A stretch of DNA of 53,772 nucleotides, taken from positions 1 through 53,772 of the forward strand of contig CBDAFS010000046.1 in NCBI GenBank assembly GCA_965195285.1. Reading direction: 5' to 3'. The translations under genes were made by a program, and so were the position numbers. The notes under the pieces are model-generated. The model saw only the letters and a program-made list of their open reading frames with translations. It was not told the DNA's origin and ran no database searches. Within the stretch, counting starts at the first letter, position 1; each line of letters begins with the position of its first letter. Below, piece by piece: positions 10,450-53,772 of this stretch. The stretch is from an uncultured Aminicenantes bacterium (lineage in GTDB: Bacteria; Acidobacteriota; Aminicenantia; UBA2199).

Positions 10450-10884
10450 ATGAATATGGATTTGGAATTTTTTAAAAAGCAGTGTAAACAATACAACCTG
10501 AGAATCACTCCTCAGCGCATTTTAATATACAAAGTTGTTTTAAGCTCACCCGAACATCCCAATACCGAAATTGTATTCAGGCAAGTTAAAGAAGAGTTTT
10601 CAAATATCTCATTCAATACCGTCCACCGAACCCTTTTAACCTTTGCTGAACTTAAGCTGTTGGATACGGTTGAGGGATTTGGCGGTCCGAAACGGTTTGA
10701 TCCCAATTTGAGTAATCATCACCATCTGCATTGCGAAAAGTGTGGGAAGATCGTTGACTTCAAAGATAAAACCTATGATGACCTGCCAGCTCCCCGACAG
10801 CTGGACAACGATTTTGAGATAACCAGAACAAGAGTGGTCATCAGTGGGATATGTAAAGATTGTCAAAAGAAAATTAAATATTGA
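10450..10884 (+). CDS. perR: Fur family regulator, PerR-like
   Basis: LRITPQR, EHP, HHHLHCEKCG and CKDC zinc motifs; directly upstream of catalase. Confidence 0.82.
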   Translation: MNMDLEFFKKQCKQYNLRITPQRILIYKVVLSSPEHPNTEIVFRQVKEEFSNISFNTVHRTLLTFAELKLLDTVEGFGGPKRFDPNLSNHHHLHCEKCGKIVDFKDKTYDDLPAPRQLDNDFEITRTRVVISGICKDCQKKIKY

Positions 10885-10921
10885 AAAAAATTTTAAATTA
10901 GTTTGTAAATAGGAGGAAACG

Positions 10922-12385
10922 ATGAGTAATGACAAAAACAAGGGGAAAGGGGAGAAGATCCTAACCACAGCAGCCGGTATTCCGGTTCCGGATAACCAGA
11001 CTTCGCTAACTGCCGGGGAACGTGGACCCACTTTAATGCAAGATCATTTTTTACTTGAAAAACTGGCTCATTTCAATCGGGAACGCATTCCCGAGCGGGT
11101 TGTTCATGCCAAGGCAGCCGGCGCCCACGGTACTTTTACGGTAACCAATGATATCACCAAGTATACCAAAGCCAAACTTTTCTCTAAGGTTGGGGGAAAA
11201 ACCGACATGTTCGGTCGCTTTTCTACGGTGGCCGGTGAAAAAGGTTCTGCGGATACGGTTCGTGATGTTAGGGGATTTGCCCTCAAATTCTACACCGAAG
11301 AAGGCAACTGGGATTTGGTTGGAAATAATACCCCCACATTTTTTATTCGGGATGCCATGAAATTTCCCGATTTTATCCATACCCAAAAGCGGGTTCCTCA
11401 AACCAATTTAAGGTCAGAAACCATGTGGTGGGACTTCTGGTCTCAGGTTCCGGAATCACTTCATCAGGTAACCATTCTTTTTTCAGATCGCGGTATCCCC
11501 AAGGGGATCCCCTTTATGAATGGCTACGGTAGCCATACCTACAGTTTTATCAATGCCAACAATGAACGATTTTGGGTCAAATTTCATTTTAAAACCCGGC
11601 AAGGAATTCAAAACATGACCCAGGAAGAGGCGGATACAATGGTAGGAAAAGATCCGGATTACCATACCCGCCAGTTGTTTGAGACCATACAAAAAGGTGG
11701 TTTCCCCAAATGGATATTTAACATACAGATAATGCCCGAAGCCGAGGCTGAACACTATCGCTGGAATCCCTTTGATCTGACCAAGGTATGGCCCCACGGT
11801 GATTACCCCCTGATCGAAGTCGGGGTGATGGAATTAAATCGCAATCCGGAAAACTACTTTGCCGAGGTTGAACAATCCGCCTTTTCACCGGCAAACGTGG
11901 TCCCCGGAATATCCTTTTCACCCTGCAAAATGCTTCAGGCCCGTATTTTTGCTTATGCCGATGCCCATCGGTACCGCCTCGGAGTTAACTATGAGAGTTT
12001 GCCCATTAACCGTCCCCAAGGACCAGAAGTCAACAACTATCAGCGGGATGGACATATGAGATTTGACGGCAACCGGGGCACAGCGGTGAACTATGAGCCC
12101 AATACCTTTGGAGGTCCCAATGAAGATTCTGCCTTTGCCGAACCTCCTCTAAAAATTTCCGGTGATGCAGATCGGTATGAGCAGAAAAGAGGGGTTGATG
12201 ATGATTACATTCAACCGGGAAATCTGTATCGGTTACTCCCCCCGGATGAACAGAATCGTTTGATCAATAACATTGTTGGCACCCTTAAAAATGTTCCCCG
12301 GCAAATCCAGGAAAAGATGGTTAGCCATTTCAGAAAAGCGGATCCAGCTTACGGAGATGGAGTCGCCAAGGGATTGGGACTTTAA
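10922..12385 (+). CDS. katA: Monofunctional heme catalase
   Basis: [34 protein letters not shown] signature motifs. Confidence 0.96.
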
Positions 12386-20631: not shown

Positions 20632-21665
20632 GGGTCAAGTCTTTAGTTTACATTTCAAACTTTGTTTGATATATTATCTTCATGAGCAGACCATTAAGAA
20701 TTGAATATCCCGGAGCCTGGTATCATGTGATGAACAGGGGAAGGAGATCTGAGAAGATATATCTTGATGATGAAGATTATCATAGCTTTATGGAATTGTT
20801 GATTGAATCTTCAGAATTGTGGTCGGTAAATATCTGTGCATTTTCACTTATGCCCAGCCATTATCATTTGTTGATCAATACTCCTCTGGGAAACCTGAGT
20901 AGATTTATGCGCCATGTAAATGGTGTTTATACACAAAGATTCAATAATGCCCATAAATACGAAGGAACTCTGTTTAAAGGGAGATATAAATCGATCTTGA
21001 TCGAATTTGACAATTACTTTTTGCAATTGATCCGTTATATACACAGGAATCCGATCAGAGCGAAACTGGTAAATAATCTGGAAGATTATAAATGGAGCAG
21101 CCATCATGCATATATAAATAAATCTCCGGAATGGGCATGGATCAAAAGTGAACAGCTGTTATCAATATTGTCAGAAAAGACAGATGATCAGATTGATGAA
21201 TATATAAAATTTATGGAAATTGATGATGACCCGAAACTGATAAAGGTATTTGAAAGTAAGAAATGGCCTTCTCTTCTTGGAGGAGATAAATTCATTAATT
21301 TAATAAAAAGGAAATATTTCCCGGAGGTAAAGGATAAGGAAATTCCGGAATCGGGTAATTTAGCACCCGATATTGAATTAATCAAAGAAATGGTTTGTAA
21401 ATATTACAACATACCTCCCAGAACTTTATGCAGGGCGAAAAGGCAGTCGTATAATGAGCCAAGAAACATGGCAATATATCTATCCCGTTACTTGAGAAAT
21501 GATTCCCTTAAGCAAATTAGTAAAGAATATCTTCTTGGAAGCGAAAGTTCTGTAAGCAGTATACTGAATTCAATAAAGGAAATGATCATAAATGATCCTG
21601 AAGTTGAGAATAAAGTGGTAGAGATGAGTAGACTTGTGACGAAACGTGAAATAAAGACTTGACCC
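20632..21665 (+). mobile_element. RAYT/Y1 transposase element bounded by 14-bp inverted repeats
   Basis: GGGTCAAGTCTTTA (20632-20645) / TAAAGACTTGACCC (21652-21665); the gene's TGA lies inside the right repeat. Confidence 0.75.
20682..21662 (+). CDS. REP-associated tyrosine transposase-like HUH enzyme with C-terminal DnaA-C-like HTH
   Basis: YHVMNRG, LMPSHYHLL (HUH), YIHRNP (catalytic Tyr), WSS; C-terminal PRNMAIYLSR...SLKQI. Confidence 0.88.
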   Translation: MSRPLRIEYPGAWYHVMNRGRRSEKIYLDDEDYHSFMELLIESSELWSVNICAFSLMPSHYHLLINTPLGNLSRFMRHVNGVYTQRFNNAHKYEGTLFKGRYKSILIEFDNYFLQLIRYIHRNPIRAKLVNNLEDYKWSSHHAYINKSPEWAWIKSEQLLSILSEKTDDQIDEYIKFMEIDDDPKLIKVFESKKWPSLLGGDKFINLIKRKYFPEVKDKEIPESGNLAPDIELIKEMVCKYYNIPPRTLCRAKRQSYNEPRNMAIYLSRYLRNDSLKQISKEYLLGSESSVSSILNSIKEMIINDPEVENKVVEMSRLVTKREIKT

Positions 21666-22928: not shown

Positions 22929-23133
22929 CCAATACCTCCTTTCCCATACCTACCACTTTCACTTTACCCGGGAAAATATTTTAAGTCAAGAATATGTATA
23001 GGTTGCATACATATGAGACACTGGGTAAGATTTTATCACATAATCAATGGGAGATAAATTTAAATTGTATTTTGAACGGTAATTTTTACCTCAATCATGG
23101 GAACCGCCTGCCCAGGTTCAGTGAAGGGAAAAA

Positions 23134-23206
23134 AGCCGATGCCCAGAGTCGAACTGGGGACCTTTTGATTACGAATCAAGCGCTCTACCAGCTGAGCTAC
23201 ATCGGC
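23134..23206 (-). tRNA. tRNA-Thr(CGT)
   Basis: GCCGATG acceptor, TAGCTCAGCTGGTAGAGC D-arm, anticodon loop TT-CGT-AA, GTTCGA T-loop; CCA not encoded. Confidence 0.95.
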
Positions 23207-23219
23207 TTGAATAAAATAA

Positions 23220-39299: not shown

Positions 39300-39896
39300 T
39301 TATACCGCCTTTTTATCCGACTGTTTCCGGTATCGACAATTGATGCTGAAGTTAAACACCTCGATCCCGCTGGCCCGGCTTCGCTGGGAGGAGTTGAGTC
39401 GGATATTGAAAAAATGATTGGTGCTCTGCAGGTTGTCAATAAAATTGGCTATCAAGTGATTGGTCCGGGCCCGACCGCTGATATTCAAAACCCCTCCGGA
39501 AAAATTGAGCCGGGTCAACCATACCCAGTCCGGAAGCACCCGGGAGAGTTCATCCATCATGAACACGGTCTGCTTCTGCCTGGCTTTCAGGTCACTGATT
39601 ACTTTGACCTTTCGGTCAAGTTCCTTTTTTGCCTTTTCCAGATGTTCCAGGGTCTTCAAGACATTGTCCAGCTCGGTTTTTCGGGCCTTTCGCTCGGCTA
39701 AGAAACGGGTGGAGCTATCCAGCCGGTAGGATTGAGTAAAATACATGACGCCAATAATGCCCACGGTGATGACAGCAGCCGCAATGGCCGAACCCACATG
39801 GACCTGGCTCTCTCTCTGTTTTTCGACAATGGTTGGGACCTCAACTCCTCTGCCAACATCTTTTTTTTCTGGACTTAATAAATTAACTTTAATCAT
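39300..39896 (-). CDS. pilN: Type IV pilus assembly protein PilN
   Basis: MIKVNLL, LPDWVWLT, FIDNLQ. Confidence 0.9.
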   Translation of the reverse strand: MIKVNLLSPEKKDVGRGVEVPTIVEKQRESQVHVGSAIAAAVITVGIIGVMYFTQSYRLDSSTRFLAERKARKTELDNVLKTLEHLEKAKKELDRKVKVISDLKARQKQTVFMMDELSRVLPDWVWLTRLNFSGGVLNISGRARTNHLIANFIDNLQSTNHFFNIRLNSSQRSRASGIEVFNFSINCRYRKQSDKKAV

Positions 39897-43265: not shown

Positions 43266-44221
43266 CCCCGGTATTGAACCTGGTGTCCATTCTGTTCAAA
43301 TGCTTTTCCCTGCTGACCCTCAGCCTGCGTTCCCTGGGCAAAAAAGCCTTTTCCGAGGCATTCATTATTTCAGTGGACAACCTGTCATTCGGCGGTACCG
43401 GTAAAACCACACTGGTTAACGAAATCTGTCAGGCCCTGAACCGGAAAAAACTGAAATTTGCCATTGTCAGCCGGGGGTACCGGTCCGGTTATGAAAAAAC
43501 AGGAGTCCGGGTTACCCCGGAGCACCGGGTTTCGGAGGTCGGGGATGAGGCCATTCTGCTGAGGAACAATTTTCCCCATCAGGAGATTTTTGTCGGTAAA
43601 AACCGGCATGAATCCATAAAAACGGCACTGGACAATGATCGGAACATCATTATTCTGGATGATGGCTTTCAGTCAACCGGAATCCGTAAAAACCTGAAGA
43701 TCATGCTGATCAATCCCCGCCATCCTTATTATTATCTGAGAAATTTCAAATGGTTGAGCCGTTGGGAAGACATTGTACTTCACCTGGCCGGGGAATCCGA
43801 ATTCCAGCATCCACTTAAGAGAAAAAAAAATCACCCCCTTCAGGGTTATTACGCTTTTTCTGTCCTGAAATTCCACCAGGCCTCCGGCCGAAAAACAGAC
43901 ATTGGAAATGCCACATTGCTGGGATTCTCGGCCCTGGGGGATAACCAGCGGTTTCGGGATGACCTCTCCCGGTTCAACCTGAAAGTTTTCAGGCCCTTTC
44001 CGGACCACCATGGATACAACCAGGGGGATCTGGCCCGGTTGAACACCCTCAAAAAACAAAACCGGATTGACTATCTGGTTTGCACGGAAAAGGATTTCAT
44101 CAAGCTCTCGGAATTGAATTTGACCGGGATTCCTTTAATTTATGCTAAAAATAGTATAAAATTTAGTTTTAACCTGAATGAGCTGATTGGGAAACATGTC
44201 AAAAAACACGGTTTTATTTAA
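43262..44221 (+). CDS. lpxK: Tetraacyldisaccharide 4'-kinase
   Basis: NLSFGGTGKT, SRGY, GDEA, LDDGFQ, FPDHH, TEKD. Confidence 0.92.
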   Translation: MTPVLNLVSILFKCFSLLTLSLRSLGKKAFSEAFIISVDNLSFGGTGKTTLVNEICQALNRKKLKFAIVSRGYRSGYEKTGVRVTPEHRVSEVGDEAILLRNNFPHQEIFVGKNRHESIKTALDNDRNIIILDDGFQSTGIRKNLKIMLINPRHPYYYLRNFKWLSRWEDIVLHLAGESEFQHPLKRKKNHPLQGYYAFSVLKFHQASGRKTDIGNATLLGFSALGDNQRFRDDLSRFNLKVFRPFPDHHGYNQGDLARLNTLKKQNRIDYLVCTEKDFIKLSELNLTGIPLIYAKNSIKFSFNLNELIGKHVKKHGFI

Positions 44222-45119
44222 ACACCGGATCGAATATGCCGTTTTCATGGCCTATATCACCAGCATACAATTATCTCCACTGTTCATGCTGCCCCTTCAC
44301 CGAGCCAGCCTGGATTTCTTGTTCCGGGTGCTGGGCCGCCGGCATTCGAAAATCGTGACCCACAACCTGGAGATGGCCTTCCCGGAAAAAAAGACATCGG
44401 AAATCAGACAATTGAAACGCAATGTATACAAGCATTTTGCCAAAATTTTCACCCAGATCATTTATTTGTATATCAAGAAAAAGCCTGAAAAGATCTTACC
44501 GGTAATCCAGATCCGGAACAGCCAGGCTCTTGAGAATAGTCTGAACAGGGGGAAAGGGGTCATTTTGTTTTCGGCTCATTTTGGAAACTGGGAGCTGGTT
44601 CCCTTTATTATCAGCCGGGAACTGAACCGAAAAACCTACAATGTAGCCCGGATCATGGATAATCCATTGATCGAAAAACGGGTAACCCAGTTTAGGGAGT
44701 ACATGGGATCCCGCATTATCTACAAAAAAGGTTCCATTAAAACCATTCTCAAGGAATTGCGGAACAACCAGATCATCGGCATGATCATTGACCAGAACAC
44801 CCTGCCCGAAGAGGGGGTATTTGTTGATTTTTTTTCCCGGAAAGTGTGTGCCGTACCCTCGGTATCCCTGCTCCACCTGAAGCGTAACATTCCCATTGTA
44901 CCGGTTTTTATCCATTACGAACCGAAAAAAATTGTCTTTGAGATCTCGGATGAAGTTGCCTTTCGGAAAACCGGAGATTTCCAGGATGATTTAATCCGGC
45001 TGACCCAGTACTGCAATACCCTCATCGAAGAAAAAATCAGGCAATTCCCCGAACAATGGCTGTGGTTTCACCAGCGCTGGAAATCCAAACCATCAGGAGA
45101 AAATCATGAGACCGGATAA
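44196..45119 (+). CDS. lpxL: Lipid A late acyltransferase (LpxL/HtrB family)
   Basis: AHFGNWE, IDQ, VDFF, PEQWLWFHQRWK. Confidence 0.88.
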   Translation: MSKNTVLFKHRIEYAVFMAYITSIQLSPLFMLPLHRASLDFLFRVLGRRHSKIVTHNLEMAFPEKKTSEIRQLKRNVYKHFAKIFTQIIYLYIKKKPEKILPVIQIRNSQALENSLNRGKGVILFSAHFGNWELVPFIISRELNRKTYNVARIMDNPLIEKRVTQFREYMGSRIIYKKGSIKTILKELRNNQIIGMIIDQNTLPEEGVFVDFFSRKVCAVPSVSLLHLKRNIPIVPVFIHYEPKKIVFEISDEVAFRKTGDFQDDLIRLTQYCNTLIEEKIRQFPEQWLWFHQRWKSKPSGENHETG

Positions 45120-45813
45120 CCGGAAGGATTCTGACATCAGGCGTATCAATATTGTTCCCGACTATATCCAGAACATACCCGGATCAGTACTGCTGGAACA
45201 GGGTAATACCCGGGTCATCTCCACCGCCACCTTTGAAAACAAAACCCCCCATTTCTTAAAAGACTCAAACAAGGGATGGATCAATGCGGAATACGCCATG
45301 CTCCCGGGTTCGGTTGGAATACAACGCTTGAAAAGGGAACGCTCCCGATCCCATTACCGCCATATTGAGATTCAACGGTTTATTGGCCGGGCACTGAGAA
45401 ATACCTTTGACATGAAGGCCATAACCGGGAAAACTTTTTTCGTGGATACCGACGTGATCCAGGCGGATGGCAGCACCCGCTGTGTGGCTCTTAATGCCGC
45501 CATGCTGGTAGTAGTCAAGTTATTGAAATATCTTGTTTTTGAAAACCTGATGGCTGAAATACCCGAACTGGAGATCATTGCCGCCGTATCAGTCGGGATC
45601 AAAGATGACAAAATCCTGGCAGATCTCAACTACAGGGAAGACTCGACCGCGGATGCCGACATCAATATCGTGTCTTCGGAAAAGGAAAACATAATCGAAA
45701 TCCAGGCCTTTGCCGAAGAAAAACCGATCAGCAACCGGTTGACTCGAAAGGCCATTGATCTGGGTATTGAAAAAAACCTGGAAATCATTCAGATTTTAAA
45801 AAACCATCTTTAA
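45106..45813 (+). CDS. rph: Ribonuclease PH
   Basis: GWINAEYAMLP, EIQRFIGRALR, DVIQADGSTR, DLNYRED. Confidence 0.9.
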   Translation: MRPDNRKDSDIRRINIVPDYIQNIPGSVLLEQGNTRVISTATFENKTPHFLKDSNKGWINAEYAMLPGSVGIQRLKRERSRSHYRHIEIQRFIGRALRNTFDMKAITGKTFFVDTDVIQADGSTRCVALNAAMLVVVKLLKYLVFENLMAEIPELEIIAAVSVGIKDDKILADLNYREDSTADADINIVSSEKENIIEIQAFAEEKPISNRLTRKAIDLGIEKNLEIIQILKNHL

Positions 45814-45979
45814 CCCGGCCCCGGTTTCCAGCCTGAAATCTATTTCCTGAACCAGGTTTCGGGAGGGCTTACCCAGCACAAAAAAAGTAAAGGTTGTCAA
45901 CAGAAACCAACAAAAGCGAATGGATTGTCGAACCCATTGCGGGTTCGAATCTACGAACGCAGGTGCAGGTAGAAACGGG

Positions 45980-47314
45980 TCAACCGGTTTTTAAACGGGT
46001 GAGTTTATGAAATCTGGTTGTCAGAAGCAGTGCTGAGACGGTAAGGCCGAGAAAAAGCCCGACCCATACTCCTTGAGCTTTGTAATTCATCACAAAGCCA
46101 AACAGGTAACCACAGGGCAGGCCGATAACCCAATAGGCAATGAAGGTAATAATTGTGGGGAACCTGGTGTCCGCCAAGCCCCGTAATATGCCTAATGAAA
46201 CCACCTGGACACCATCGGAAATTTGGAATAATGCTGCAATAATCAACAGAGATGAGGCAATATTAATTACGGAAACATCAGTAATATACAATTGCGGCAA
46301 TTGTTTTCTAAAAATAATAAATAAAATTCCAAAGGATCCCATGACCGCTGCTGATAAAAAAATTGATATAAATCCTGCCCATCTGGCAGAGACAAAATCC
46401 TTTCGGCCAACGGCATTCCCCACCCGTACTGAAGCCGAGGACGATATCCCCAAGCCGAACATAAAAGTAATGGCGGCCATATTTAACGCAATCTGGTGGG
46501 CCGCCAGTTCCTTTGCCCCAAACCAGCCAATCAAAACCGCTGCTCCGGCAAATGCGCCAATCTCAAAAAAATTTTGAAAGGCGCTGGCCAGGCCAAGTTT
46601 TACCAGCTTCCTCATCATCTTCCAATTTATCTTTTTATAATGTAATCCGGGGGCGAAAGGTTTGAATTTACGGGAAAATAATATGTAAGCTGCGAGTACA
46701 CAAGCCATCACCGTACGGGTACCGAAGGTAGAATAACCGGCCCCTTTCAGCCCCATGGCCGGGAAACCCCAGTGACCGAAAATAAAAATCCAGTTGAACA
46801 ATGCGTTAAGGATATTGGCTGCGATTATTATAATCATTGCTGGTTTCATGAAAAACAAACCCTCGGAAAACTGACGGTAAACCTGAAATATCAAAACCGG
46901 GATAATGGACCACCCCAATATTTTCATGTAAGGTATCGTCTCATTCACAACCTCTGTTGATTGCCTTAACCCTGGAATCATCCCGGTCATCCCGAAGGTG
47001 ATTACAGTTAAAACGATTGCAATGCCGAGTCCCGCCAGCAACCCTTGCCTTAAAACAACCCCGCATTCTGAAAATTCTCTTTTGCCGTTAGCCATGGCCA
47101 CGTAGGGAGTTATTGCATATGAAAAACCAATCCCCACCACCAGGATCAGAAAAAAAATACTATTGGCAAGGGCAGAGGCAGCCAGGGGAATCACACCGAG
47201 CCTGCCCACCATCAGGCTGTCCACTACTCCCATCATCATGTGTCCAAGCTGTCCAATAATAACAGGGATTGCCAGTTTTATGGTTGTTTTTAGCTGGTAT
47301 TTCAGTTCTCTCAT
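45980..47314 (-). CDS. MATE family efflux transporter (NorM-like)
   Basis: 12-TM pattern, VDSLMVGRLG, AAHQIA, VRVGNAVG, FQISDGVQ. Confidence 0.9.
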   Translation of the reverse strand: MRELKYQLKTTIKLAIPVIIGQLGHMMMGVVDSLMVGRLGVIPLAASALANSIFFLILVVGIGFSYAITPYVAMANGKREFSECGVVLRQGLLAGLGIAIVLTVITFGMTGMIPGLRQSTEVVNETIPYMKILGWSIIPVLIFQVYRQFSEGLFFMKPAMIIIIAANILNALFNWIFIFGHWGFPAMGLKGAGYSTFGTRTVMACVLAAYILFSRKFKPFAPGLHYKKINWKMMRKLVKLGLASAFQNFFEIGAFAGAAVLIGWFGAKELAAHQIALNMAAITFMFGLGISSSASVRVGNAVGRKDFVSARWAGFISIFLSAAVMGSFGILFIIFRKQLPQLYITDVSVINIASSLLIIAALFQISDGVQVVSLGILRGLADTRFPTIITFIAYWVIGLPCGYLFGFVMNYKAQGVWVGLFLGLTVSALLLTTRFHKLTRLKTG

Positions 47315-47609
47315 TCATCTCCCATAGCGATCAGTCTATTTTTAGCCTTGAATTATACCATTTCTGTTCGAGATTTGACAAAATGGATAAATTGATGTAT
47401 TCATAATGTACCATGAATGATTCAGTGAGACCGGGAGGAGAAACAATTAATCAGATGAGTGAATCTCTTCAGGAAATCATTTATATCAACCGTTTTAATG
47501 GATTATAAAATCATATCCTGATCAACCTTTTTCGATTTAAATTCCCTTTTTGAAGGATCAAAAAAATCCGTTTTTCTTCCCAAAAAATTTAAAAAAAGGA
47601 GATTCAAAC

Positions 47610-48764
47610 ATGAAAGTTATCATATTAGGTGCTGGATTGGTTGGCGGCCCCATGGCGATTGACCTGGCAAAGGATTCAAATTTTGATGTGACCGCTGTGG
47701 ATGTCAATCCACAGGTTATGGAAAATCTGAAAGAACATTCAATAAAAACCATAAAATCAGATTTATCCAATCCGGAGAATATCATTCATCTCATTGCGGA
47801 TCATGATATGGTGGTTAATGCGGTTCCCGGTTTTATAGGATTCTCTACATTAAAAGCCGTTATTGAAGCGAAAAAAAATGTGGTGGATATCGCATTTTAT
47901 GATGAGGATCCCTTCGAACTTGATGAATTGGCCAAAAATAAGGGCGTCACCGCAATTGTTGATTGCGGTGTATGTCCAGGGATGAGCAACCTGATCATTG
48001 GTCACCTGGATCAATCGATAGAGTTGGATTCCATACTACTATACGTGGGTGGGCTTCCGGAGGAGAGAAAGCTGCCATTTGAATATAAAGCAGGATTTTC
48101 ACCCCTGGATGTCATTGAAATATATGAACGACCCGCCAGAATGATTGAAAATTTCCAAATGGTTTCAAAACCGGCTCTATCTGAACCGGAGCTCATCAAT
48201 TTTCCTCAAATTGGCACATTAGAGGCGTTTAACAGTGATGGGATTCGTTCCCTCATGCGAACCATTAAAGCCAGAAATATTCAGGAAAAAACCCTCCGTT
48301 ATCCGGGGCATATTCAAAAAATTGCTCTACTCAAGGACATCGGCTTATTTGACCTGCAGGAGATTGATGTGCAGGGTCAAAAAATCCGCCCCCGAGACTT
48401 AACAGTCAGGCTTCTGTTTCCCATGTGGGAAATGAAGAAAGATGATTCTGATTTAACCATCCTTAAATTTATCGTGGTGGGTAAAAAAGAGGGAAAAACA
48501 TTAGAATATACCTATGACCTTTTGGATCGTTATGATCCGGAAACCAAAACCAGTTCCATGGCCCGGACCACTGGTTATACCGCTACTGCAGCGGTTCGCA
48601 TGCTGGAACAAAAGTTGTTCAACCAGAAAGGAATCTGCCCTCCGGAATATATTGGAAAGCACAAAAATTGTGTTGATTTTATTTTTGAGAAATTGCGGGA
48701 GAGAAATATCTTCTACCATGAATCCGTAAAAGAACTGGCTCCAGAAATCAACAGTTTTGGGTAA
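47610..48764 (+). CDS. Saccharopine dehydrogenase family protein (lysine 6-dehydrogenase-like)
   Basis: LGAGLVG, DCGVCPGMSN, VGGLP, KTLRYPGH, SMARTTGY; ATG 47610 after AAGGAG. Confidence 0.85.
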   Translation: MKVIILGAGLVGGPMAIDLAKDSNFDVTAVDVNPQVMENLKEHSIKTIKSDLSNPENIIHLIADHDMVVNAVPGFIGFSTLKAVIEAKKNVVDIAFYDEDPFELDELAKNKGVTAIVDCGVCPGMSNLIIGHLDQSIELDSILLYVGGLPEERKLPFEYKAGFSPLDVIEIYERPARMIENFQMVSKPALSEPELINFPQIGTLEAFNSDGIRSLMRTIKARNIQEKTLRYPGHIQKIALLKDIGLFDLQEIDVQGQKIRPRDLTVRLLFPMWEMKKDDSDLTILKFIVVGKKEGKTLEYTYDLLDRYDPETKTSSMARTTGYTATAAVRMLEQKLFNQKGICPPEYIGKHKNCVDFIFEKLRERNIFYHESVKELAPEINSFG

Positions 48765-48776
48765 TCGGATTTTTCA

Positions 48777-48920
48777 AATTTGTCGAACCCATTGGGGGTT
48801 CTCACCACAGCCAGGATTCAAAAAAATGATACGCGAGGTATCATTTTTTTGAATCGGAGGGACTGGGGTGGATGGACAACCGCTGTTGCCCACCCTTACG
48901 GACTACTCATTTCGTTCGCT
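48777..48920 (-). repeat. tRNA-Ser 3'-tail repeat unit (distal copy)
   Basis: Contains CGGAGGGACTGGG (48855-48867), an 18-bp-stem hairpin (48815-48855) and TTGTCGAACCCATTGGGGGTTC, all repeated near 53.0-53.3 kb. Confidence 0.9.
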
Positions 48921-49019
48921 CGTGTGAATTTTGACTCCACGCCAAAATTCATCAAACTCAAGTTCCCTAAAATTGAATTGTTTCCTGTTCAAATTCCCGC
49001 AATAAATACTCAAATATTT

Positions 49020-52000
49020 TTAATTAAAAGGAAGAGCTAAAGGCGAGCAATTAATATTTATTTGGTGCTCTAAGTAGTTCAATTTATTTGTTGCTTTTTT
49101 TATACTAAATTTTTTAATTCTTTTTTTATGTTCAGATCGGATGAATTGCGAACAAATATTCAACAACAACCAACCACTTTTATTTCTATCGGAACCCTGA
49201 CTTTTTAAAAATGGTGGAATTATCTCAATAAAAACATTTTCAGAGAAACGAAGTGAGATAGAATCATCTGAAAGGATTTTACATATAAATTCAGCGATAG
49301 TCTTTATTGAAGTGAGAGGAGCCACTCCATATTCCTTTGAAAGAATCATGTCTAAATGAAATGCTCTAATACATTCCGGTTTAAAAGACAAGAAACTATC
49401 ACCTTGAAACACAGCTTTGAACAAAATGTCAGAACTAATTGGTAAAAATTTACACCTATAAAAGCAAAGTAATTCAAATAAATCCAAATACTCAGAAAAC
49501 TGGATCAGGTTTTTCTCAACCATTTCTTTAACTAGAAACAAGGAAGAACAATACTCCGGGATGCTTTTTGAAGTTTCGGATGCATTAGTACTTAGGTAAA
49601 GAGAATCCTCTGTTAATAATGCTAAATTGTCCCTCTGAGCCAAAACACAAGCATCAACTATTTCAGGTGGCATGTTTTGCTCAATAAAACTATTATTTTT
49701 GCTGGCATTAGAAATTGCTATAATATTCTCCGATTTATCCTCAATTAATTTAATACAATTTATTAAATTTTCCTTCTTAGCTACCAAAAAATCAGATGAT
49801 ACTTTCCCAAATTTCGGCTCACCCTTAACATAGCTAAGATAGAGGTTCTGTCCATTTTTAGAATTGAAATATTCAACCATATTATATAAAAAATTGAGAA
49901 CTGATTGACTTACTTTTAAATTCGGAATTGTCTTAAATACTTTGCTAAATAATTTACTTTCCACCAAAAATAATGTTGATATCCCATCAATAATAGCTTC
50001 AGAGTCATTAAGGATTCTTATTGCCACTTTCTTGTGCTTTAAAAATTCTTGCCTATTGCCCAAAATATTATGAATATACCCCTTTTGTTCTGCGACAATC
50101 TTGCCTAGAGCACGTAAAATTCCATTTTCACTTTTTACAAGAAAGGCAAAGGGCAAGAAGCTTTCACAGTAAAATTGAAAAAATTCATTTTCTGCTCTTG
50201 TTTGATCTTCAAGGAATCGCTTCAAATAGGAAGTGTCGATTGTTTTACCATCCGAAGGTATTTCTATAGGAATGGCATAGTCCCATCTTCTTTCATGAGA
50301 TTGAAGTTTAAAATTATCTTGCACTTTAATGAAAATATAACCTTCAATAGATAGAATGTTTTCAATTATTCTCTCTTCAATCATAGAACTATATTTATCT
50401 TCTGGAAAATCAATTTTGCTTCCTAATTTCCTACCAATAAAAGAAGAATATTTCGAATCAGTGTTAGAAATTTTTGTTGCTCCAAGTCCTATACCATCTC
50501 CAATATAATACCAATGATCTTGGTTTTTAATTTTTACAAAACTGTCATTCCTTACATTGGCCATGGATGAAACAGATATCTTAGATAGATTATCTATCTG
50601 AGTTAAAATTAAGAATAATCTGCCATATTCCTCTGAATTTGGATTCTTTAAAGTTTTTACCCCATCTACAACAGCCATTAATGCCTTTCTTGGGTTATCA
50701 TTTTGCAGATAAGTTTCCGCTTCAATTCTGAATTTGATTTCAGGAGTTTTAATAATCTCTGAATAATCTTCCAAAAGGCTTAACGCTTCAACAGTCTTTC
50801 CTATCTTTAATTGTGCTTGAATCACTTGTGTCAACACACCCTCTAGTACTTCTGGATTTAAATGATGAATGATTAATTCCTGTTCCTTTAGAAGACTTCG
50901 TCCTATTTGAATTACTCTTGAATTTTGCCCAAGATTATATGTAGCAAAAAAAAGTCTTAAATCAGTAATAAGTTTGTCTTTTGATGTCAAATTAAAGGAT
51001 TTAAATCTTTCAAGGATCTTAGATTCGATTTCCCAAGCCTGCATTTTGTGAGCTAAGTCCGAAAATATTTTGCAATCCAAAAAACAGATCTGAGATATAT
51101 CTATTTGTTTTAGAATCTCAAAAGCCTCATCAAGAAAATTGTTTTCAAAATAATATAGAAGCCAGACTTTATCATTCTGTATACGCCCATCCTGTGGGAG
51201 GCCAGTGATGATTTCTTTCCGGATTACTGGAAAGTCCTTGAGACCATTCGCTAATCCAAGCATAAATTGGAGATTCTTGTTGGCAAAACTAAGCACCTCT
51301 TGAATATTTCCATCTACAATATTGGAAATAAAATCAATTCCCTTCTTCATTCCCAAGGTTTCAAAAAATTCTTTCCCAGATGTGGTTAAATTTCCTAACT
51401 GACAAAATTGAAGAAGTAAAGAATAGATGAGTCCTTCAGAATAATTAGTTCGCTTATTCTTCAAATAATCTGAAAGCTTTTCTAGATCATTCTCTTCAAG
51501 CAGTACATCGAAAAGAATTCTACTTAAAAGAGATTCGGTTTTATCATCCAAATAACAAGAATAGATGCTATCAAATATCATTCTTGCAATAGCTTCAAAA
51601 GTATCATACTGATCTAACTCAAGCAAAAGGTCTAATTTTATTATATGTAAATTATTTATTTTTCTTTGGCTGACCCTTCCCAAATTAGAAAATTTCTCGA
51701 ATAGTTTGTCTATATTTTCGAGGACTTCTTCAATCTGATTGAATGACCTTTGTTTATCATCAAATAATTTAGCACTAAGAATAACAAATCTATTAACATA
51801 ATTATCAAACCTCTCTGGATTTAAACTTATTGATATGTCTGCAAATTCAAGGGCCCTTGATAACTTCCCCTCTTTTAAAAAAAAAATCGAAATAATTCTA
51901 TAAAAAATCGATTGAATTCGTTTTTCTTCAGAATGAACACCTTGGATAATTTTCTCTGGATCGAACTCCATCTTGTCATCTAAGTCTCTTATCAATTTTT

Positions 52001-52850
52001 GGATTTTGAATAACCAATGTTCCGTATCTATACTTTCCGCAAGAGACATTAATTCATCATCTTTATCTAAATCACTCTCATAAAAATAAATTTCAGCTAA
52101 ATACAAAATTGCTCGTATATCAGAAGAGTGACATTGAATAATTGATTCATATATTTTCTTGGCTTCTTCTGCATCTTCATTGAGTAGGGCCGCCTTGCCT
52201 TCTAGAATTCTGAGTTCTAGCAACAATTCTGGATCCACCCCATTCTTTAAAGTTGATTTAACTTTTTCAATTCCCTTCAAAACATAGTCAACATGACCTC
52301 GATCAAGGTCAATCTGGACACTTTCGATTAGGTTGTGAACAATTTTGATTGAATGGCGAACATCAATATGAAATCCTAAATCTATCAATTGGGTATTATC
52401 CAATCTAAGAAAAATTTCTTCGAGATTTTTTAAAGAGAATATTTCGAACTCAATATTTAGATAATTATTTTTATGAACAGACAAAGCATCCAGCAATTGT
52501 GGAGATTTGCCTCGTTCTTTATCATTAAAAACAAAACACCATTTTTTGATTGGGAATTTTTTGTTCCAATATTCGTAAAGTGGAGGAAAGTCATTTAATA
52601 GCTTTCGAGCTGCATCAGCTTGCTTTATTTCAGGACATTCAGGCGCATAAACCTGATAATAAATCCCTTTACTTATTCTAAATCCATCATTTTTTCTATC
52701 TCCTAATCTCCCAGACGGTTTAATTTTTTCGAAATCATCGAATGCCGCTCTCATTATTCCTTCAAAAAATGTTTGAAATTCAATTCCATTTTTTCTAAAT
52801 ACATGATTAAAAAATTGTGCTTTTAGATACTGTTTATCCAGTATTCTCAT
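49020..52850 (-). CDS. Large AT-rich multidomain protein: nuclease-like N-terminus, TPRs, GreA/B-C-like domain, PIN-like domain (putative defence)
   Basis: GRLGDRKNDG..YYQVYAP; helical repeats; ISNTDSKYSSFIGRKLG; IIDGIS...DACVLA...LLTED. Confidence 0.7.
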   Translation of the reverse strand: MRILDKQYLKAQFFNHVFRKNGIEFQTFFEGIMRAAFDDFEKIKPSGRLGDRKNDGFRISKGIYYQVYAPECPEIKQADAARKLLNDFPPLYEYWNKKFPIKKWCFVFNDKERGKSPQLLDALSVHKNNYLNIEFEIFSLKNLEEIFLRLDNTQLIDLGFHIDVRHSIKIVHNLIESVQIDLDRGHVDYVLKGIEKVKSTLKNGVDPELLLELRILEGKAALLNEDAEEAKKIYESIIQCHSSDIRAILYLAEIYFYESDLDKDDELMSLAESIDTEHWLFKIQKLIRDLDDKMEFDPEKIIQGVHSEEKRIQSIFYRIISIFFLKEGKLSRALEFADISISLNPERFDNYVNRFVILSAKLFDDKQRSFNQIEEVLENIDKLFEKFSNLGRVSQRKINNLHIIKLDLLLELDQYDTFEAIARMIFDSIYSCYLDDKTESLLSRILFDVLLEENDLEKLSDYLKNKRTNYSEGLIYSLLLQFCQLGNLTTSGKEFFETLGMKKGIDFISNIVDGNIQEVLSFANKNLQFMLGLANGLKDFPVIRKEIITGLPQDGRIQNDKVWLLYYFENNFLDEAFEILKQIDISQICFLDCKIFSDLAHKMQAWEIESKILERFKSFNLTSKDKLITDLRLFFATYNLGQNSRVIQIGRSLLKEQELIIHHLNPEVLEGVLTQVIQAQLKIGKTVEALSLLEDYSEIIKTPEIKFRIEAETYLQNDNPRKALMAVVDGVKTLKNPNSEEYGRLFLILTQIDNLSKISVSSMANVRNDSFVKIKNQDHWYYIGDGIGLGATKISNTDSKYSSFIGRKLGSKIDFPEDKYSSMIEERIIENILSIEGYIFIKVQDNFKLQSHERRWDYAIPIEIPSDGKTIDTSYLKRFLEDQTRAENEFFQFYCESFLPFAFLVKSENGILRALGKIVAEQKGYIHNILGNRQEFLKHKKVAIRILNDSEAIIDGISTLFLVESKLFSKVFKTIPNLKVSQSVLNFLYNMVEYFNSKNGQNLYLSYVKGEPKFGKVSSDFLVAKKENLINCIKLIEDKSENIIAISNASKNNSFIEQNMPPEIVDACVLAQRDNLALLTEDSLYLSTNASETSKSIPEYCSSLFLVKEMVEKNLIQFSEYLDLFELLCFYRCKFLPISSDILFKAVFQGDSFLSFKPECIRAFHLDMILSKEYGVAPLTSIKTIAEFICKILSDDSISLRFSENVFIEIIPPFLKSQGSDRNKSGWLLLNICSQFIRSEHKKRIKKFSIKKATNKLNYLEHQININCSPLALPFN

Positions 52851-53042
52851 AAATCTTTCACCAACATCTTATGTTTCATAAAATCACAACTTTAATATTT
52901 GACTAAATCGATAAATTATATTCTTGCTCCAATCTCCCTAAGTTTTTCTTGTAATACAAGTTTAGTTAAAATTATAGCATATATTTTTATAGGTCGGTTA
53001 TTATGTTTAAATTTTTTTAACCGGTCAATTCTAGTATGTCCG

Positions 53043-53271
53043 AATTTGTCGAACCCATTGGGGGTTCTCACCAACAAAATTGTGCCATGCACCGTATGGT
53101 ACATGGCGGAGGGACTGGGGTGGATGGACAACCGCTGTTGCCCACCCTGACGGGCTGCTCACTGCGTTCACATTCCAAATTCGAGTCTTTCGAATTTGTC
53201 GAACCCATTGTGGGTTCTCACCGCAGCCAAGATTCAAAAAAATGATACACAAGGTATCATTTTTTTGAATC
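53043..53271 (-). repeat. tRNA-Ser 3'-tail repeat units (proximal copies)
   Basis: Tail copy at 53107-53119, 164 bp from the true tRNA end; core motif at 53046 and 53196. Confidence 0.9.
53231..53271 (-). terminator. Hairpin immediately 3' of tRNA-Ser (terminator-like or processing signal)
   Basis: Perfect 18-bp stem GATTCAAAAAAATGATAC-N5-GTATCATTTTTTTGAATC; AT-rich stem with no classical U-tract. Confidence 0.45.
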
Positions 53272-53357
53272 GGAGGGACTGGGATTCGAACCCAGGGACC
53301 CTGTGATGGGTCAACGATTTTCGAGACCGTCCCGTTCAACCGCTCCGGCATCCCTCC
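53271..53357 (-). tRNA. tRNA-Ser(CGA)
   Basis: GGAGGGA acceptor, anticodon loop CT-CGA-AA, long variable arm GACCC-ATCACA-GGGTC, GTTCGAATC T-loop, G discriminator; CCA not encoded. Confidence 0.95.
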
Positions 53358-53772
53358 TTTCCTGAAAAAATGCCTTTAACATATCGGAAACTTGCTGCTG
53401 CAAGATTCCGGATTCCACCTGAATGGAATGGTTGTAAATATCATTGATACGTTCGAAAGCCCCGGTGGAAAAAATCCCGGTTTTGGGATCCCGGGCCGCA
53501 TACACCAGTCGCCTGACACGGGCATGCACCAGGGCTGAAAAACACATCAGGCAGGGTTCCAGGGTTACATAGATTTCAGAACCGGATAAACGGTAGTTTC
53601 GGATCTTTTTACCGGCCTTCCTCAGGGCCACCACTTCGGCATGGGCACTGGAATCGGATTTCCCGATCATTGAATTATATCCCCGGCCGATTATATCTCC
53701 GTCCCGAACCACCACAGCCCCCACCGGCACTTCACCCCGGTCCCGGGCCATCCTGGCTTCCGCCAGTGCCTG
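53311..53772 (-). CDS. tadA: tRNA adenosine(34) deaminase, 5' end truncated by the window edge
   Basis: EVPVGAV, AHAE, VTLEPCLMC, DPKTG; the frame stays open to the window end (QALAEARM...). Confidence 0.93.
   Translation of the reverse strand, partial: QALAEARMARDRGEVPVGAVVVRDGDIIGRGYNSMIGKSDSSAHAEVVALRKAGKKIRNYRLSGSEIYVTLEPCLMCFSALVHARVRRLVYAARDPKTGIFSTGAFERINDIYNHSIQVESGILQQQVSDMLKAFFQERRDAGAVERDGLENR

Follow-up and report, generated by a model that had tools for sequence, protein, structure and literature searches.

RtT-like Repeat Units behind tRNA-Ser in an Uncultured Aminicenantes Bacterium, with a Gene-Bearing Insert between Them

Introduction

The RtT repeat of Escherichia coli has been known since the late 1970s and gives an RNA product. 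This rtT RNA is reportedly trimmed by tRNA-processing enzymes, and RtT is still not known to have a function in any organism. Integrase-less or tRNA-linked cargo systems are also known, namely cis-mobilizable elements (CIMEs), tandem accretion at tRNA genes, and tycheposon-type tRNA islands. Integrases of the T-loop type are reported (Williams 2002) to duplicate the tRNA 3' end, from within the T-loop, as direct repeats. A 2024 preprint calls the mode of action of RtT "still unknown".

Here, we describe an array of repeats from an uncultured bacterium of the Aminicenantes, a far-off sediment lineage, in which an RtT-like plan is found behind tRNA-Ser and tRNA-Glu genes with strong covariation. 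The whole stretch of DNA analysed, hereafter called the window, comprises 53,772 nucleotides of contig CBDAFS010000046.1 (assembly GCA_965195285.1). An initial annotation had compared the repeats with the E. coli tyrT/rtT tail repeats and had proposed that they act as a landing pad for gene cassettes, serviced in trans. We hold with moderate confidence that the array consists of tRNA-linked repeat units of the RtT type, and that the gene-bearing insert within it arrived by recombination between units without a dedicated integrase.

The tRNA-Ser(CGA) Gene and the Repeats behind It

The array begins at a gene for tRNA-Ser(CGA) (53271..53357; all features are on the minus strand unless stated otherwise), called by ARAGORN and by Rfam RF00005 at 51.7 bits. 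A tadA-like deaminase upstream of the tRNA (53311..53751; Pfam) is a conserved neighbour in three relatives (G003, G002, and G092; tblastn). The final 13 nt of the tRNA form the "tail" that the units copy; two further copies of its final 12 nt lie at 53107 and 48855 (152 and 4404 nt downstream, respectively), and with the one in the tRNA they are the only three occurrences in the whole genome of 3.28 Mb. The repeat period of 164 bp is 53271 minus 53107. Longer repeats surround the tails: D3 (48855-48917 versus 53107-53169; 63 nt, 92%, the first 42 nt identical), D1 (48765-48867 versus 53181-53283; 103 nt, 91%), and D2, a 31-nt core with four copies at 45922, 48777, 53043, and 53193. The D2 copies at 48777 and 53043 are 100% alike, whereas those at 53193 and 45922 reach 94% and 74%, respectively. 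A pattern search of the genome with the core gave exact matches at 45925, 48780, 53046, and 53196 and a fifth match with two mismatches on another contig (C45:38937), and the reversed pattern, used as a control, gave 0 matches. These results confirm what had initially been noticed at this locus: the tail 13-mer at 53271, 53107, and 48855, the 42-bp identity between 48855-48896 and 53107-53148, and the four core copies at 53196, 53046, 48780, and 45925.

Directly after the tRNA stands T1 (53232..53270), an A/T-flanked, perfect hairpin of 18 bp (inverted repeat I9), which we read from its sequence as a bidirectional terminator-like element. A second copy of this post-tRNA hairpin, T2 (48816..48854; inverted repeat I8, within D1), is found far downstream.

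Structure of the Units

The repeats are units of a structured element, rather than bare att scars. A full unit of ~125 nt has an outer stem P1, a hairpin H derived from the T-arm, three or four more hairpins, and a 3' tail, and it folds into a closed multi-helix junction on the tRNA-sense strand. At its 5' side, the unit repeats the tRNA T-arm in inverted orientation, the central TCG being changed to GAG. P1 and H arise when this inverted copy base-pairs with a direct copy, which spans the T-arm and the 3' end. The T-loop is interrupted precisely between TTCGA and ATCC by the conserved core of ~80 nt, which comprises three to four hairpins. The final 8-12 nt of the unit match the acceptor 3' strand of the tRNA and are single-stranded in the fold, and a terminator follows.

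Unit 1 (53107..53236) is a complete RtT-like module that scores 121.5 bits with R1, a covariance model built from 11 units, all from Aminicenantes (MFE fold z = -3.11; alignments A1 and A2). In its P1, CUGCGGUG is paired with CACCCCAG; its H is formed by GAACCC and GGGUUC, followed by GAC; then come P2, P3, a CCCG-loop-GGG hairpin, a Y hairpin, and a 3' tail (53107-53119) equal to the tRNA 3' end. After the tail stands the terminator-like hairpin b (53084..53107; terminator scan), which is present in G003 as well, and then H2 (53043..53073; D2), a truncated unit with hairpin H and the first core bases only (R1 partial match 52995-53079, 19.6 bits). Unit 2 (48855..48986; D3) is a nearly complete module (R1 60.4 bits, E 8.8e-15), in which H is degenerate, P2 (GAAUUUUG/CAAAAUUC) is AT-rich and, like P3, its own, and the Y hairpin and tail equal those of unit 1 over 42 nt. 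The terminal truncated unit H3 (48777..48807; D2; R1 partial match 48697-48813, 20.0 bits) is 100% identical to H2 over 31 nt, and it is followed by the 3' end of a saccharopine dehydrogenase gene. The diverged fourth H copy, H' (45922..45952; D2, 74%; R1 partial match 45860-45958, 18.1 bits), has a degenerate tail-like GCCCTCCCG ~60 nt beyond it. The earlier description of a second unit split by ~4.1 kb needs correction: a truncated unit (H2) lies on the tRNA side, and a separate, nearly complete unit 2 lies on the far side.

A second place in the same genome carries a unit, behind tRNA-Ser(TGA) on C45. Its tail matches tRNA-Ser(TGA), and its P2 and Y hairpins show compensatory changes relative to the units of the tRNA-Ser(CGA) array. 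Outside the units, nothing in this genome reaches 18 bits with R1.

In the alignment of 11 units, 18 of the 32 pairs are compensatory. In the alignment of 53 units, 93.1% of cells are paired versus 74.9% in shuffles and at most 46% in slid controls, changes on both sides occur in 27 of 32 pairs, and 0 of 500 shuffles reach the observed values, with the proviso that alignment A2 was fitted to the model, which favours the pairing counts. At one position of helix 4, the commonest pair is G-U (40 of 51 sequences), and thus the tRNA-sense strand is the folded strand. P1 has an exact complement of at least 7 nt in only 12 of 47 units. In MFE folding, the plans obtained for unit 1, for the C45 unit, and for an E. 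coli unit look alike (z = -3.1, -3.25, and -2.9, respectively).

These structural data bear on the possibility that the copies are only attR scars of decayed integrase islands that were serially integrated into tRNA-Ser. Integrases of the T-loop type leave direct repeats of just this extent, from the T-loop to the tRNA 3' end, the insert is AT-rich and looks foreign, and classical tail repeats with an integrase are present at tRNA-Arg in this very genome. However, scars decay, whereas compensatory changes have preserved five helices of the units in 10 genera; most copies are in tandem without cargo; the inverted T-arm copy is not a product of integration; and the units appear to share their plan with E. 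coli RtT, an RNA product. For these reasons, we judge the scar reading very improbable.

Comparison with RtT

RtT, located in the tyrT-tyrV operon (gene rttR; RF00391), resembles the Aminicenantes array in the following respects: (i) the units stand head to tail right behind a tRNA gene, on the same strand; (ii) the tRNA 3' end, beginning within the T-loop (AAUCC...), is copied at the end of each unit; (iii) an inverted copy of the T-arm, with TCG changed to GAG, makes up the 5' part; (iv) the elements appear to follow in the order GAUGAGAA..GGUUCGAC, two hairpins, CCCG-loop-GGG, GCAGC-loop hairpin, and tail; and (v) P1 appears to close a multi-helix junction. In the E. coli units themselves, the order reads GGAUGAGAA..GGUUCGAC, two hairpins, CCCGAAGGG, the GCAGC-loop hairpin, and AAUCC with the tRNA-Tyr tail. 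They also differ: the host tRNAs are Ser and Glu in the Aminicenantes, whereas that of RtT is Tyr; a 9-bp AU-rich P2 hairpin takes the place of the GAGCG..CGAG hairpin of RtT; some Aminicenantes arrays hold protein genes between units; and some Aminicenantes copies keep the whole tRNA body and a promoter ahead of the core.

The Aminicenantes units are also below the gathering score of RF00391 (45 bits). At E <= 1, the Rfam model had no match in positions 44000-53772 of the window nor in two other unit-bearing loci (L067 and L068), and in the whole genome it gave only an unrelated match of 16.8 bits; in E. coli, it detects four units at 133-138 bits. In the other direction, R1 matches 4 of 4 E. 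coli RtT units at the same places as RF00391, at 21.0-33.5 bits, scores that come partly from tRNA-derived letters and with rough model E-values. Because the Rfam model misses the units, the match is one-way, and homology with RtT rests on one-way model matches. In substance, the suggested link to the tyrT/rtT tail repeats was right, as the R1 matches, the order of elements, and the MFE plan indicate. The natural variants with a whole tRNA body and promoter add comparative material on RtT-like units, and such material could define the essentials, namely the junction in the T-loop, the pairing of GAG with CGA, and a free tail derived from the acceptor strand.

Distribution and Linkage to tRNA Genes

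R1 matches are present in 45 of the 72 genomes of the family and in 10 of its 18 genera, with 1-9 copies each, often in tandem. In a sample of the phylum, 4 of 151 genomes had matches, all within the family of the host. A unit adjoins tRNA-Ser (17) or tRNA-Glu(CTC) (8) in 25 of the 29 loci examined, and three of the four loci where no tRNA was found (L043, L052, and L053) are at contig ends. Most arrays in relatives consist of tandem units without cargo. The core joins the T-loop at the same position (58/59) whether the unit follows one of four tRNA-Ser isoacceptors or tRNA-Glu, and it does so within otherwise full-length copies of tRNA-Ser as well. For example, in G085 and G084, a promoter (TTGACA-17-TACAAT) is followed by tRNA-Ser positions 1-58 and then by the core and tail, and Rfam detects the partial tRNA ahead of the core. 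In G035, and in unit 1 of G028, the tail mismatches the adjacent tRNA and matches tRNA-Ser of G021. It should be mentioned that a fixed junction of this kind, after TTCGA, would be equally expected if the core were inserted site-specifically.

Some of these observations would suit a different idea, which we regard as doubtful though not negligible: the ~80-nt, four-hairpin core is a small mobile module homing to T-loops after TTCGA, with the arrays and captured genes as by-products. Such a core would move as single-stranded DNA or RNA, by an enzyme acting in trans, such as a Y1 (HUH) transposase. The constant 58/59 junction and the G035 and G028 tails speak for it, as do the 17 Y1_Tnp matches in the host genome (G000). 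On the contrary, Y1_Tnp is present in 59 of the 72 genomes, including genera without units (genomes G030, G020, and G064 have 6-14 copies each), and is absent from five unit-bearing genomes (G077, G078, G083, G087, and G023); where Y1 genes were found next to units, in two cases, they are separate IS-like inserts that bear inverted hairpins of their own; no clean pair of empty and filled sites was found for the core alone; and neither TnpB nor a reverse transcriptase was found in the host genome. A wider form of the idea, in which the core is a self-propagating module homing to T-loops across bacterial phyla, with E. coli RtT as a branch, and its copies make the DNA behind tRNA genes a platform on which defence-type genes such as PIN-TPR are gained and lost without an integrase, appears distinctly unlikely to us.

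An IS200/IS605 or REP-RAYT system was considered and rejected, since the presence of Y1 is independent of the units. REP/BIME-RAYT elements share with the units the form of tandem, hairpin-rich intergenic repeats in a genome with many Y1 transposase genes; however, the Y1 genes do not co-occur with the units, which are found only behind tRNA-Ser and tRNA-Glu and are not dispersed.

The PIN-TPR Insert and Its Neighbours

Between the units lies an AT-rich insert of 4.3 kb; positions 49000-52999 have 29-34% G+C versus 42-53% in the flanks. Its cargo is the ORF of a 1276-aa TPR + PIN-TPR-GreABC-type protein (49020..52850), whose Pfam match to PF20698 (22.8 bits) is below the cut-off. Among the matches listed, the other 41 proteins are 32-42% identical, most of them with PF20698. 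The insert begins directly past GGGTTCGACAA at H2, which is the point where the core starts in full units, and is bounded by perfect repeats of 31 bp and 42 bp. The tail copies at 53107 and 48855 are direct repeats of the tRNA 3' part that flank the gene.

In G003, a species of the same genus, the tRNA, unit 1, hairpin b, and H2 are present, and the 1276-aa gene and unit 2 are absent. In the X3 contig, the tail of unit 1 is joined to a terminator copy, not to b. The bounds of the insert depend on which of these two comparators is used: the 31-bp H repeat against G003, and the 42-bp repeat of Y and tail against the X3 junction. Unit 2 belongs to the insert. Other cargo is found between two units behind tRNA-Glu, namely nuclease/ATPase and nucleotidyltransferase genes in G071 and a sensor kinase in G032. 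Cargo at the repeats therefore varies across relatives, as had been anticipated. For the lysine-dehydrogenase and MATE block that had also been assigned to the array, a role as cargo is not supported. The block consists of a saccharopine/lysine dehydrogenase-family gene between H3 and H' (47610..48764, plus strand; Pfam PF16653 and PF03435) and a MATE efflux family gene (45980..47314; Pfam PF01554); G003 carries a saccharopine dehydrogenase gene with 93% amino acid identity beside its own array, so that the dehydrogenase block adjoins the array there too.

Because the contig comes from a metagenome-assembled genome of 62 contigs, with perfect repeats at both insert junctions and a fall of ~15 points in G+C, one may ask whether the insert is an assembly chimera, with the 31- and 42-nt repeats as the points where DNA from a low-G+C organism was attached. 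We would be greatly surprised by this. Unit 2 is a mosaic that passes from an AT-rich 5' part to the 42-nt host-identical stretch, the host terminator, and H3, and a second organism would thus have to share those segments exactly. In addition, run X1, which may be the source sample, holds 98% of sampled words of the window.

Recombination and Expression

Pfam PF00589 (tyrosine recombinase) gave six matches in the genome, none on the array contig and none beside tRNA-Ser: Xer-like genes, an integrase adjacent to tRNA-Arg(TCG), a further integrase, and two fragments. PF00239 (serine recombinase) gave none in this genome, which is 94.9% complete, and Pfam scans of the cargo ORFs of this locus, G071, and G032 found no recombinase. 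The earlier remark that the array has no integrase is borne out by the lack of tyrosine or serine recombinase matches on the contig, but the expected co-occurring recombinase did not appear, and the Y1 transposase genes do not track the units.

In the landing-pad reading, the repeats are renewable, cassette-like sites of the att type, at which a recombinase encoded elsewhere inserts and excises cassettes. The varying cargo and the missing local integrase agree with it: three genomes (this one, G071, and G032) carry different cargo at sites of one kind, the left edge of the insert coincides with the core start after GGGTTCGACAA, the far unit in G071 and G032 follows an attR-like piece of tRNA-Glu, and other tRNA genes of the genome have tail repeats kilobases downstream, with one integrase beside tRNA-Arg(TCG). 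However, none of the three cargo arrays holds an integrase, and the genome, at 94.9% completeness, has no spare integrase linked to tRNA-Ser; the breakpoints vary by comparator (H versus Y and tail) instead of being single; the arrays of relatives are mostly cargo-free tandem units; and compensatory hairpins and G-U pairs, that is, covariation of the RNA type, are not a property of double-stranded att sites. Since recombination between repeated units accounts for the data as well, this reading is only partly supported, and we consider it unlikely.

The tRNA-Glu piece ahead of the far unit in G071 and G032 starts in the anticodon loop. This is what an integrase crossover leaves, and it counts against homologous recombination.

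Among known cargo systems, CIMEs and tycheposons are alike in having integrase-less cargo flanked by direct repeats from the tRNA 3' end, segments stacked in tandem behind one tRNA gene, and cargo that differs between relatives. They are unlike in that the cargo here is flanked by ~125-nt structured units, conserved in their own right, instead of bare att sites, and in that no cognate integrase was found in the Aminicenantes genome. Integron attC sites are likewise folded, structure-conserved repeats that separate promoter-less or single-gene cargo in a directional array; however, there is no intI or attI here, the units are linked to tRNA genes, whose ends they reproduce, most arrays are gene-free, and a multi-helix junction takes the place of the single imperfect hairpin. 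An integron was rejected because the contig has no PF00589 match and the repeats are tRNA-derived multi-helix units.

Returning to RtT-type units that recombine with one another, we suppose that they are transcribed, either together with the tRNA or in the same manner. Co-transcription needs read-through of the terminator that separates unit 1 from the tRNA; the contigs of RNA run X14 are found only on the dehydrogenase gene, with nothing on the units. As in the case of E. coli rtT RNA, the unit RNA would probably be trimmed by tRNA-processing enzymes, and we may guess that it serves as a tRNA-end mimic or decoy. At the DNA level, recombination between direct-repeat units that are 90-100% identical would expand and contract the arrays, and the same homologous recombination could admit or shed DNA that carries a unit. 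The AT-rich PIN-TPR gene may have arrived in this way with its own unit 2, through a crossover in the shared 42-bp Y and tail or in the 31-bp H. Repeats of this type can frame foreign genes without an integrase, which bears on the recognition and interpretation of tRNA-associated genomic islands. A promoter-like site, TTGACC-17-CATAAT (53000..53028), identified by consensus match only, is located upstream of the 1276-aa gene.

The Repeat Array Downstream of tRNA-Ser(CGA)

In the window, units of ~125 nt form an array that begins at tRNA-Ser(CGA) (53271-53357, minus strand). Read along this strand, away from the tRNA, the array consists of the terminator-like hairpin T1 directly after the tRNA, unit 1 (53236-53107, minus), a terminator-like hairpin b, H2 (a truncated unit of which hairpin H alone is left), a promoter-like site, the gene for a 1276-aa TPR/PIN-type protein (52850-49020, minus), unit 2 (48986-48855, minus), hairpin T2, the truncated unit H3, the genes for a saccharopine dehydrogenase and a MATE pump and, as its last element, H' (45952-45922), a diverged copy of H. 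Pfam matches identify the neighbours of the array as a tadA-like deaminase at one end and RNase PH, LpxL, and LpxK at the opposite end. The tadA-like open frame ends within the tRNA-Ser gene (53311-53357), overlapping it by 46 nt up to the stop codon.

The initial annotation described this region as an array of tRNA-Ser tail repeats and core copies with no integrase, and both parts of that description hold. The last 12 nt of tRNA-Ser(CGA) have only two further copies in the 3.28-Mb genome, which lie 152 and 4404 nt downstream. The repeat search paired 48765-48867 with 53181-53283 (103 nt, 91%) and 48855-48917 with 53107-53169 (63 nt, 92%), the first 42 nt of the latter pair being identical in the sequence, and it found a 31-nt core in four copies, including an identical pair. 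The core pattern proposed earlier matched four times in the window and once, with two mismatches, on another contig of the same genome (C45); the reversed pattern, used as a control, gave 0 matches. A covariance model (R1), built from an alignment of 11 units (A1), scored unit 1 at 121.5 bits, unit 2 at 60.4 bits, and the three H-only remnants at 18-20 bits. The G+C content of 49000-52999 is 29-34%, against 42-53% in the surroundings. Repeated tRNA ends might be read as plain integrase scars, a reading that we consider quite improbable. The recombinase families PF00589 and PF00239 have no match on the window contig, and there is no recombinase in or near the array.

A Folded Unit with a Constant Junction

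The unit is conserved in structure, folds in the tRNA-sense strand, and has a fixed junction in a T-loop context. RNAalifold predicted 32 pairs for A1, and compensatory changes occur at 18. Among 53 aligned R1 matches (51 distinct rows), 93.1% of the cells pair, against 74.9% in shuffles, and both-side changes occur at 27 of the 32 pairs; this alignment was fitted to R1, so that the pairing counts are favoured and the pair-type counts less affected. The observed measures were reached by 0 of 500 shuffles, and a control with slid partners paired in at most 46% of the cells. At one position the pair seen most often is G-U (40 of 51), which marks the folded strand as the tRNA-sense strand.

The 3' arm of H and the bases that follow it read (T-stem 5' strand)-TTCGA, as in the T-arm of the tRNA, and the 3' end of the unit is made up of ATCC, the T-stem 3' strand, the acceptor 3' strand, and the discriminator, plus CCA where the tRNA gene encodes CCA. 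Between the TTCGA and ATCC pieces lies a core of ~80 nt with P2, P3 (carrying two GA/GA steps), a CCCG-loop-GGG hairpin, and a Y hairpin with a CAGCAG-type loop. On its 5' side, the unit carries the T-arm in inverted form, in which GAG replaces the TCG of the T-loop complement, and this copy pairs with the direct one to form H and, further out, P1. In unit 1, P1 consists of CUGCGGUG paired with CACCCCAG; its 5' strand varies with the tRNA type (CGGGGAU/AUCCCCG behind tRNA-Glu, CAGGGAU/AUCCCUG behind some tRNA-Ser, GAAGGAU/AUCCUUC in the E. coli tRNA-Tyr units). P1 is clear in part of the units only: an exact complement of at least 7 nt is found in 12 of 47 units, against 9.5% in controls, and the mean duplex energy of -12.4 kcal/mol, against -11.6 kcal/mol with mismatched tails, is not discriminating. 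When unit 1 and the C45 unit are folded as single sequences (z-scores -3.1 and -3.25), P1 closes a four-hairpin junction and the last 6-8 nt stay free. The units may be RNAs, made together with the tRNA or from a tRNA promoter, and trimming would cut such putative RNAs back to the P1/tail end. GAUGAG...CGA was not retained as a hammerhead-like motif, since several units have UUCGAACCC in its place.

Some copies in two genomes of genus g15 (G085 and G084) have no inverted arm. In its place stand a TTGACA-17-TACAAT promoter and positions 1-58 of tRNA-Ser, a partial tRNA that is also detected by Rfam, and this piece runs directly into the core and tail, in tandem with an intact tRNA gene. These copies therefore place the core at T-loop position 58/59 within a real tRNA body.

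Distribution and tRNA Linkage

We class the units as an RtT-type element family that is specific to one Aminicenantes family, where it is linked throughout the lineage to tRNA-Ser and tRNA-Glu and occasionally carries genes. In the window's own genome, R1 finds the five window matches, the unit on C45, and no others. The C45 locus, reached through the fifth core match, has tRNA-Ser(TGA), a terminator, the same hairpin H, and versions of P2 and Y set apart from unit 1 by compensatory changes; its tail copies the end of tRNA-Ser(TGA), not that of tRNA-Ser(CGA). A BLAST search of 60 relatives with unit 1 gave look-alikes, often in tandem, in 10 of 36 genomes from the same family and in 0 of 24 from other families of the class. 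In all nine BLAST-found loci that were read out and hold a tRNA, it is a tRNA-Ser (anticodon CGA, UGA, GCU, or GGA). With R1, matches extend to 45 of 72 genomes and 10 of 18 genera of the family, and to 4 of 151 genomes in a sample of the phylum, all from the window's family; these genome counts include kin and are hence non-independent. Of the 29 loci around the best R1 matches, 17 have a tRNA-Ser as neighbour and eight a tRNA-Glu(CTC); no tRNA was found at the other four, three of which (L043, L052, and L053) lie at contig ends. The arrays of relatives are mostly without genes, and two genomes (G035 and G028) have unit tails that mismatch their tRNA. An exact 26-mer of Y and tail had 0 matches in metagenome contigs.

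Downstream of two other tRNA-Ser genes the same neighbours recur: SRP RNA and dnaX come after tRNA-Ser(GGA) and an H-only remnant in the own genome (G000 contig C21, 32850-33068), and after tRNA-Ser(GCU) and two full units in a relative (locus L008, G001 contig C124). Here, tRNA-Ser genes with a common 3' end seem to have exchanged the regions that follow them.

Relationship to the E. coli RtT Repeats

tRNA-linked repeats of the RtT kind were reportedly described in enterobacteria by Egan and Landy in 1978, by Bösl and Kersten in 1991, and by Rudd in 1999. A link between the window's repeats and tyrT/rtT, already suggested by the initial annotation, is supported by the tyrT-tyrV region of K-12. 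Its four units begin with GGGGAAGGAU-GAG-AAGCUU..AAGGUUCGAC, continue with a CUC-GA-GC..GC-GA-GAG hairpin, a second hairpin, and CCCGAAGGG, and close with the GCGCGCAGCGC hairpin and UAAUCC plus the tRNA-Tyr tail; the order of elements, the GAG deviation, and the junction after TTCGA are thus the same as in the Aminicenantes units. R1, which contains no E. coli sequence, matches all four K-12 units at 21.0-33.5 bits, with rough E-values of 2e-8 to 3e-5 for the 2.6-kb locus that would be ~1800x higher genome-wide, and the minimum free energy fold of an E. coli unit follows the same plan (z = -2.9). The Rfam model RF00391 scores the four K-12 units at 133-138 bits and matches none of the Aminicenantes units searched; its sole match in the whole own genome is unrelated (16.8 bits), and Rfam 15 at E <= 1 offers no family for the units. 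We take the Aminicenantes units to be the same kind of element as RtT and probably its distant relatives; by Rfam's own criterion, they lie outside RF00391. Our literature search, with subscription journals largely outside its coverage, found no report of RtT-like units outside enterobacteria. One preprint describes the mode of action of rttR as unknown.

Genes between Units

The AT-rich gene framed by unit repeats is present or absent at the species level. In a genome of the same genus (G003), whose dehydrogenase and deaminase are 93% and 97% identical to the window proteins, the tRNA, T hairpin, unit 1, hairpin b, and H2 are all present, and directly after GGGTTCGACAA come a degenerate tail-like CCCCTCCCGG, ~190 nt, and then the dehydrogenase gene, without the 1276-aa gene and without unit 2. 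Compared with G003, the window has an extra 4.27 kb framed by the identical 31-bp H2 and H3. Unit 2 is a mosaic that shares the AT-richness of the insert in H, P2, and P3 and is identical to unit 1 in its Y hairpin and tail.

A second junction comes from one sequencing run (X3), in which a contig of 133 nt matches unit 1 without a difference over the part from H1 to the tail. Its next 17 nt differ from hairpin b and equal the 17 nt that precede the tRNA's own end. This sample has a terminator copy after the tail of unit 1, a junction that the window has at 48855 only; this difference is framed by the 42-bp identity of Y and tail. Over 48970-52959, X3 shows only scattered low-depth pieces with covered flanks; another run (X4) has no cover there and covered flanks. 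No contig joins across the stretch, and we do not count missing cover as absence. A cold-seep run (X5) yielded diverged flank pieces only, and the contigs of an RNA run (X14), two on the dehydrogenase gene, left the units uncovered. The insert could be an assembly chimera, a reading that appears very improbable to us; its junctions fall in perfect repeats of a metagenome-assembled contig, and close comparators are few. A candidate tRNA remnant upstream of unit 2 was rejected (tRNA-Ser local alignment score 17, equalled by 79 of 500 shuffles).

In G071, a tRNA-Glu with its unit is followed by 8.8 kb of cargo (a PD-(D/E)XK/AAA_24 protein, an AAA_14/DUF4143 protein, a small nucleotidyltransferase, and several unknowns) and a second unit, and in G032 the gene of a PocR-PAS sensor kinase lies between the unit behind tRNA-Glu and a second unit. 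Neither segment holds a recombinase, and in both a piece of tRNA-Glu beginning in the anticodon loop stands before the far unit. In G092, from another genus, RNase PH is followed in turn by two other ORFs, H, a unit, tRNA-Ser(CGA), and tadA; the space between rph and tRNA-Ser(CGA) therefore varies between genera. The dehydrogenase/MATE block, on a comparison of its flanks in G001 and G003, is at most putative cargo.

The G071 locus (L065, contig C40) also carries a ~50-nt long-hairpin element, GGTGCCGTCACC...GGTGACGGGCTCCC, which interrupts the far unit within its tRNA-Glu tail and is found again immediately behind the near unit (locus positions 2042-2300 and 10850-11000). These loci are thus used by a second small hairpin repeat as well.

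The 1276-aa protein has a sub-threshold Pfam match to PIN-TPR-GreABC, a weak TPR match only in NCBIfam, and no match in PADLOC. The 41 other proteins listed are 32-42% identical to it, most with the PIN-TPR-GreABC family. A single-protein locus search found none, and an alignment-based search found 43 loci from many phyla. A tRNA lies within 5 kb in eight of these 43 loci, and a tRNA-Ser in none. The gene is not a regular companion of such units; it is widely transferred, probably conflict-related, and not usually tied to tRNA. In two CPR genomes (Paceibacterota, L110 and L119), tRNA-Glu(CTC) has a PIN-TPR homologue downstream, at 178 nt and at 3 kb; this is the other tRNA type that bears units in the Aminicenantes family.

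How the Arrays May Change

On the reading that we favour, with moderate confidence, the repeated unit DNA would serve as portable homology through which arrays grow, shrink, and exchange the DNA between units. There is a hint that something more specific than homologous recombination is at work, because (i) the junction after TTCGA is constant; (ii) tails in G035 and G028 do not match their tRNA; and (iii) the tRNA pieces in G071 and G032 start in the anticodon loop. One such process would be a mobile core that homes to the T-loop, which we regard as possible and doubtful; another, a site-specific system acting in trans, we judge unlikely. The earlier proposal of a renewable, cassette-like landing pad serviced in trans is supported in part, by the variation of cargo between units (the window, G071, and G032). 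A search for candidate movers was negative: the own genome (94.9% complete) yielded no TnpB, reverse transcriptase, or serine recombinase. Y1 transposase, with 17 genes there, does not track the units across 72 genomes and was rejected as the mover; the two cases adjacent to units are IS-like inserts.

The 17 Y1_Tnp (IS200-like) matches, one at 20715-21050 (+) in the window and 16 in other places, mostly lie in frames of 300-330 aa. In relatives, the protein has a DnaA-C-type HTH and its gene lies between inverted hairpins (G014 contig C253, G017 contig C5); the group is a multi-copy, REP/RAYT-like element family.

Other tRNA-Tail Copies in the Genome

In the own genome, copies of the 3' parts of tRNA-Arg(TCG) and tRNA-Val(CAC) lie kilobases downstream of these genes (C43:49261-62395; C32:25792 and 29165; C55:74321-80953). 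Several are preceded by a shared motif of ~70 nt, GAATCAGCAYGACTGACYGAARGGAAGGA...GAGCGAG..AAATC, and they look like another family of modules linked to tRNA tails. An integrase of 368 aa adjoins tRNA-Arg (C43:50845-51324). On C45, 600 nt downstream of the tRNA-Ser(TGA) unit, a 3' fragment of ~54 nt of tRNA-Thr(CGT) (39598-39662), whose intact gene lies in the window (23133-23207), may be an att-like site of another element.
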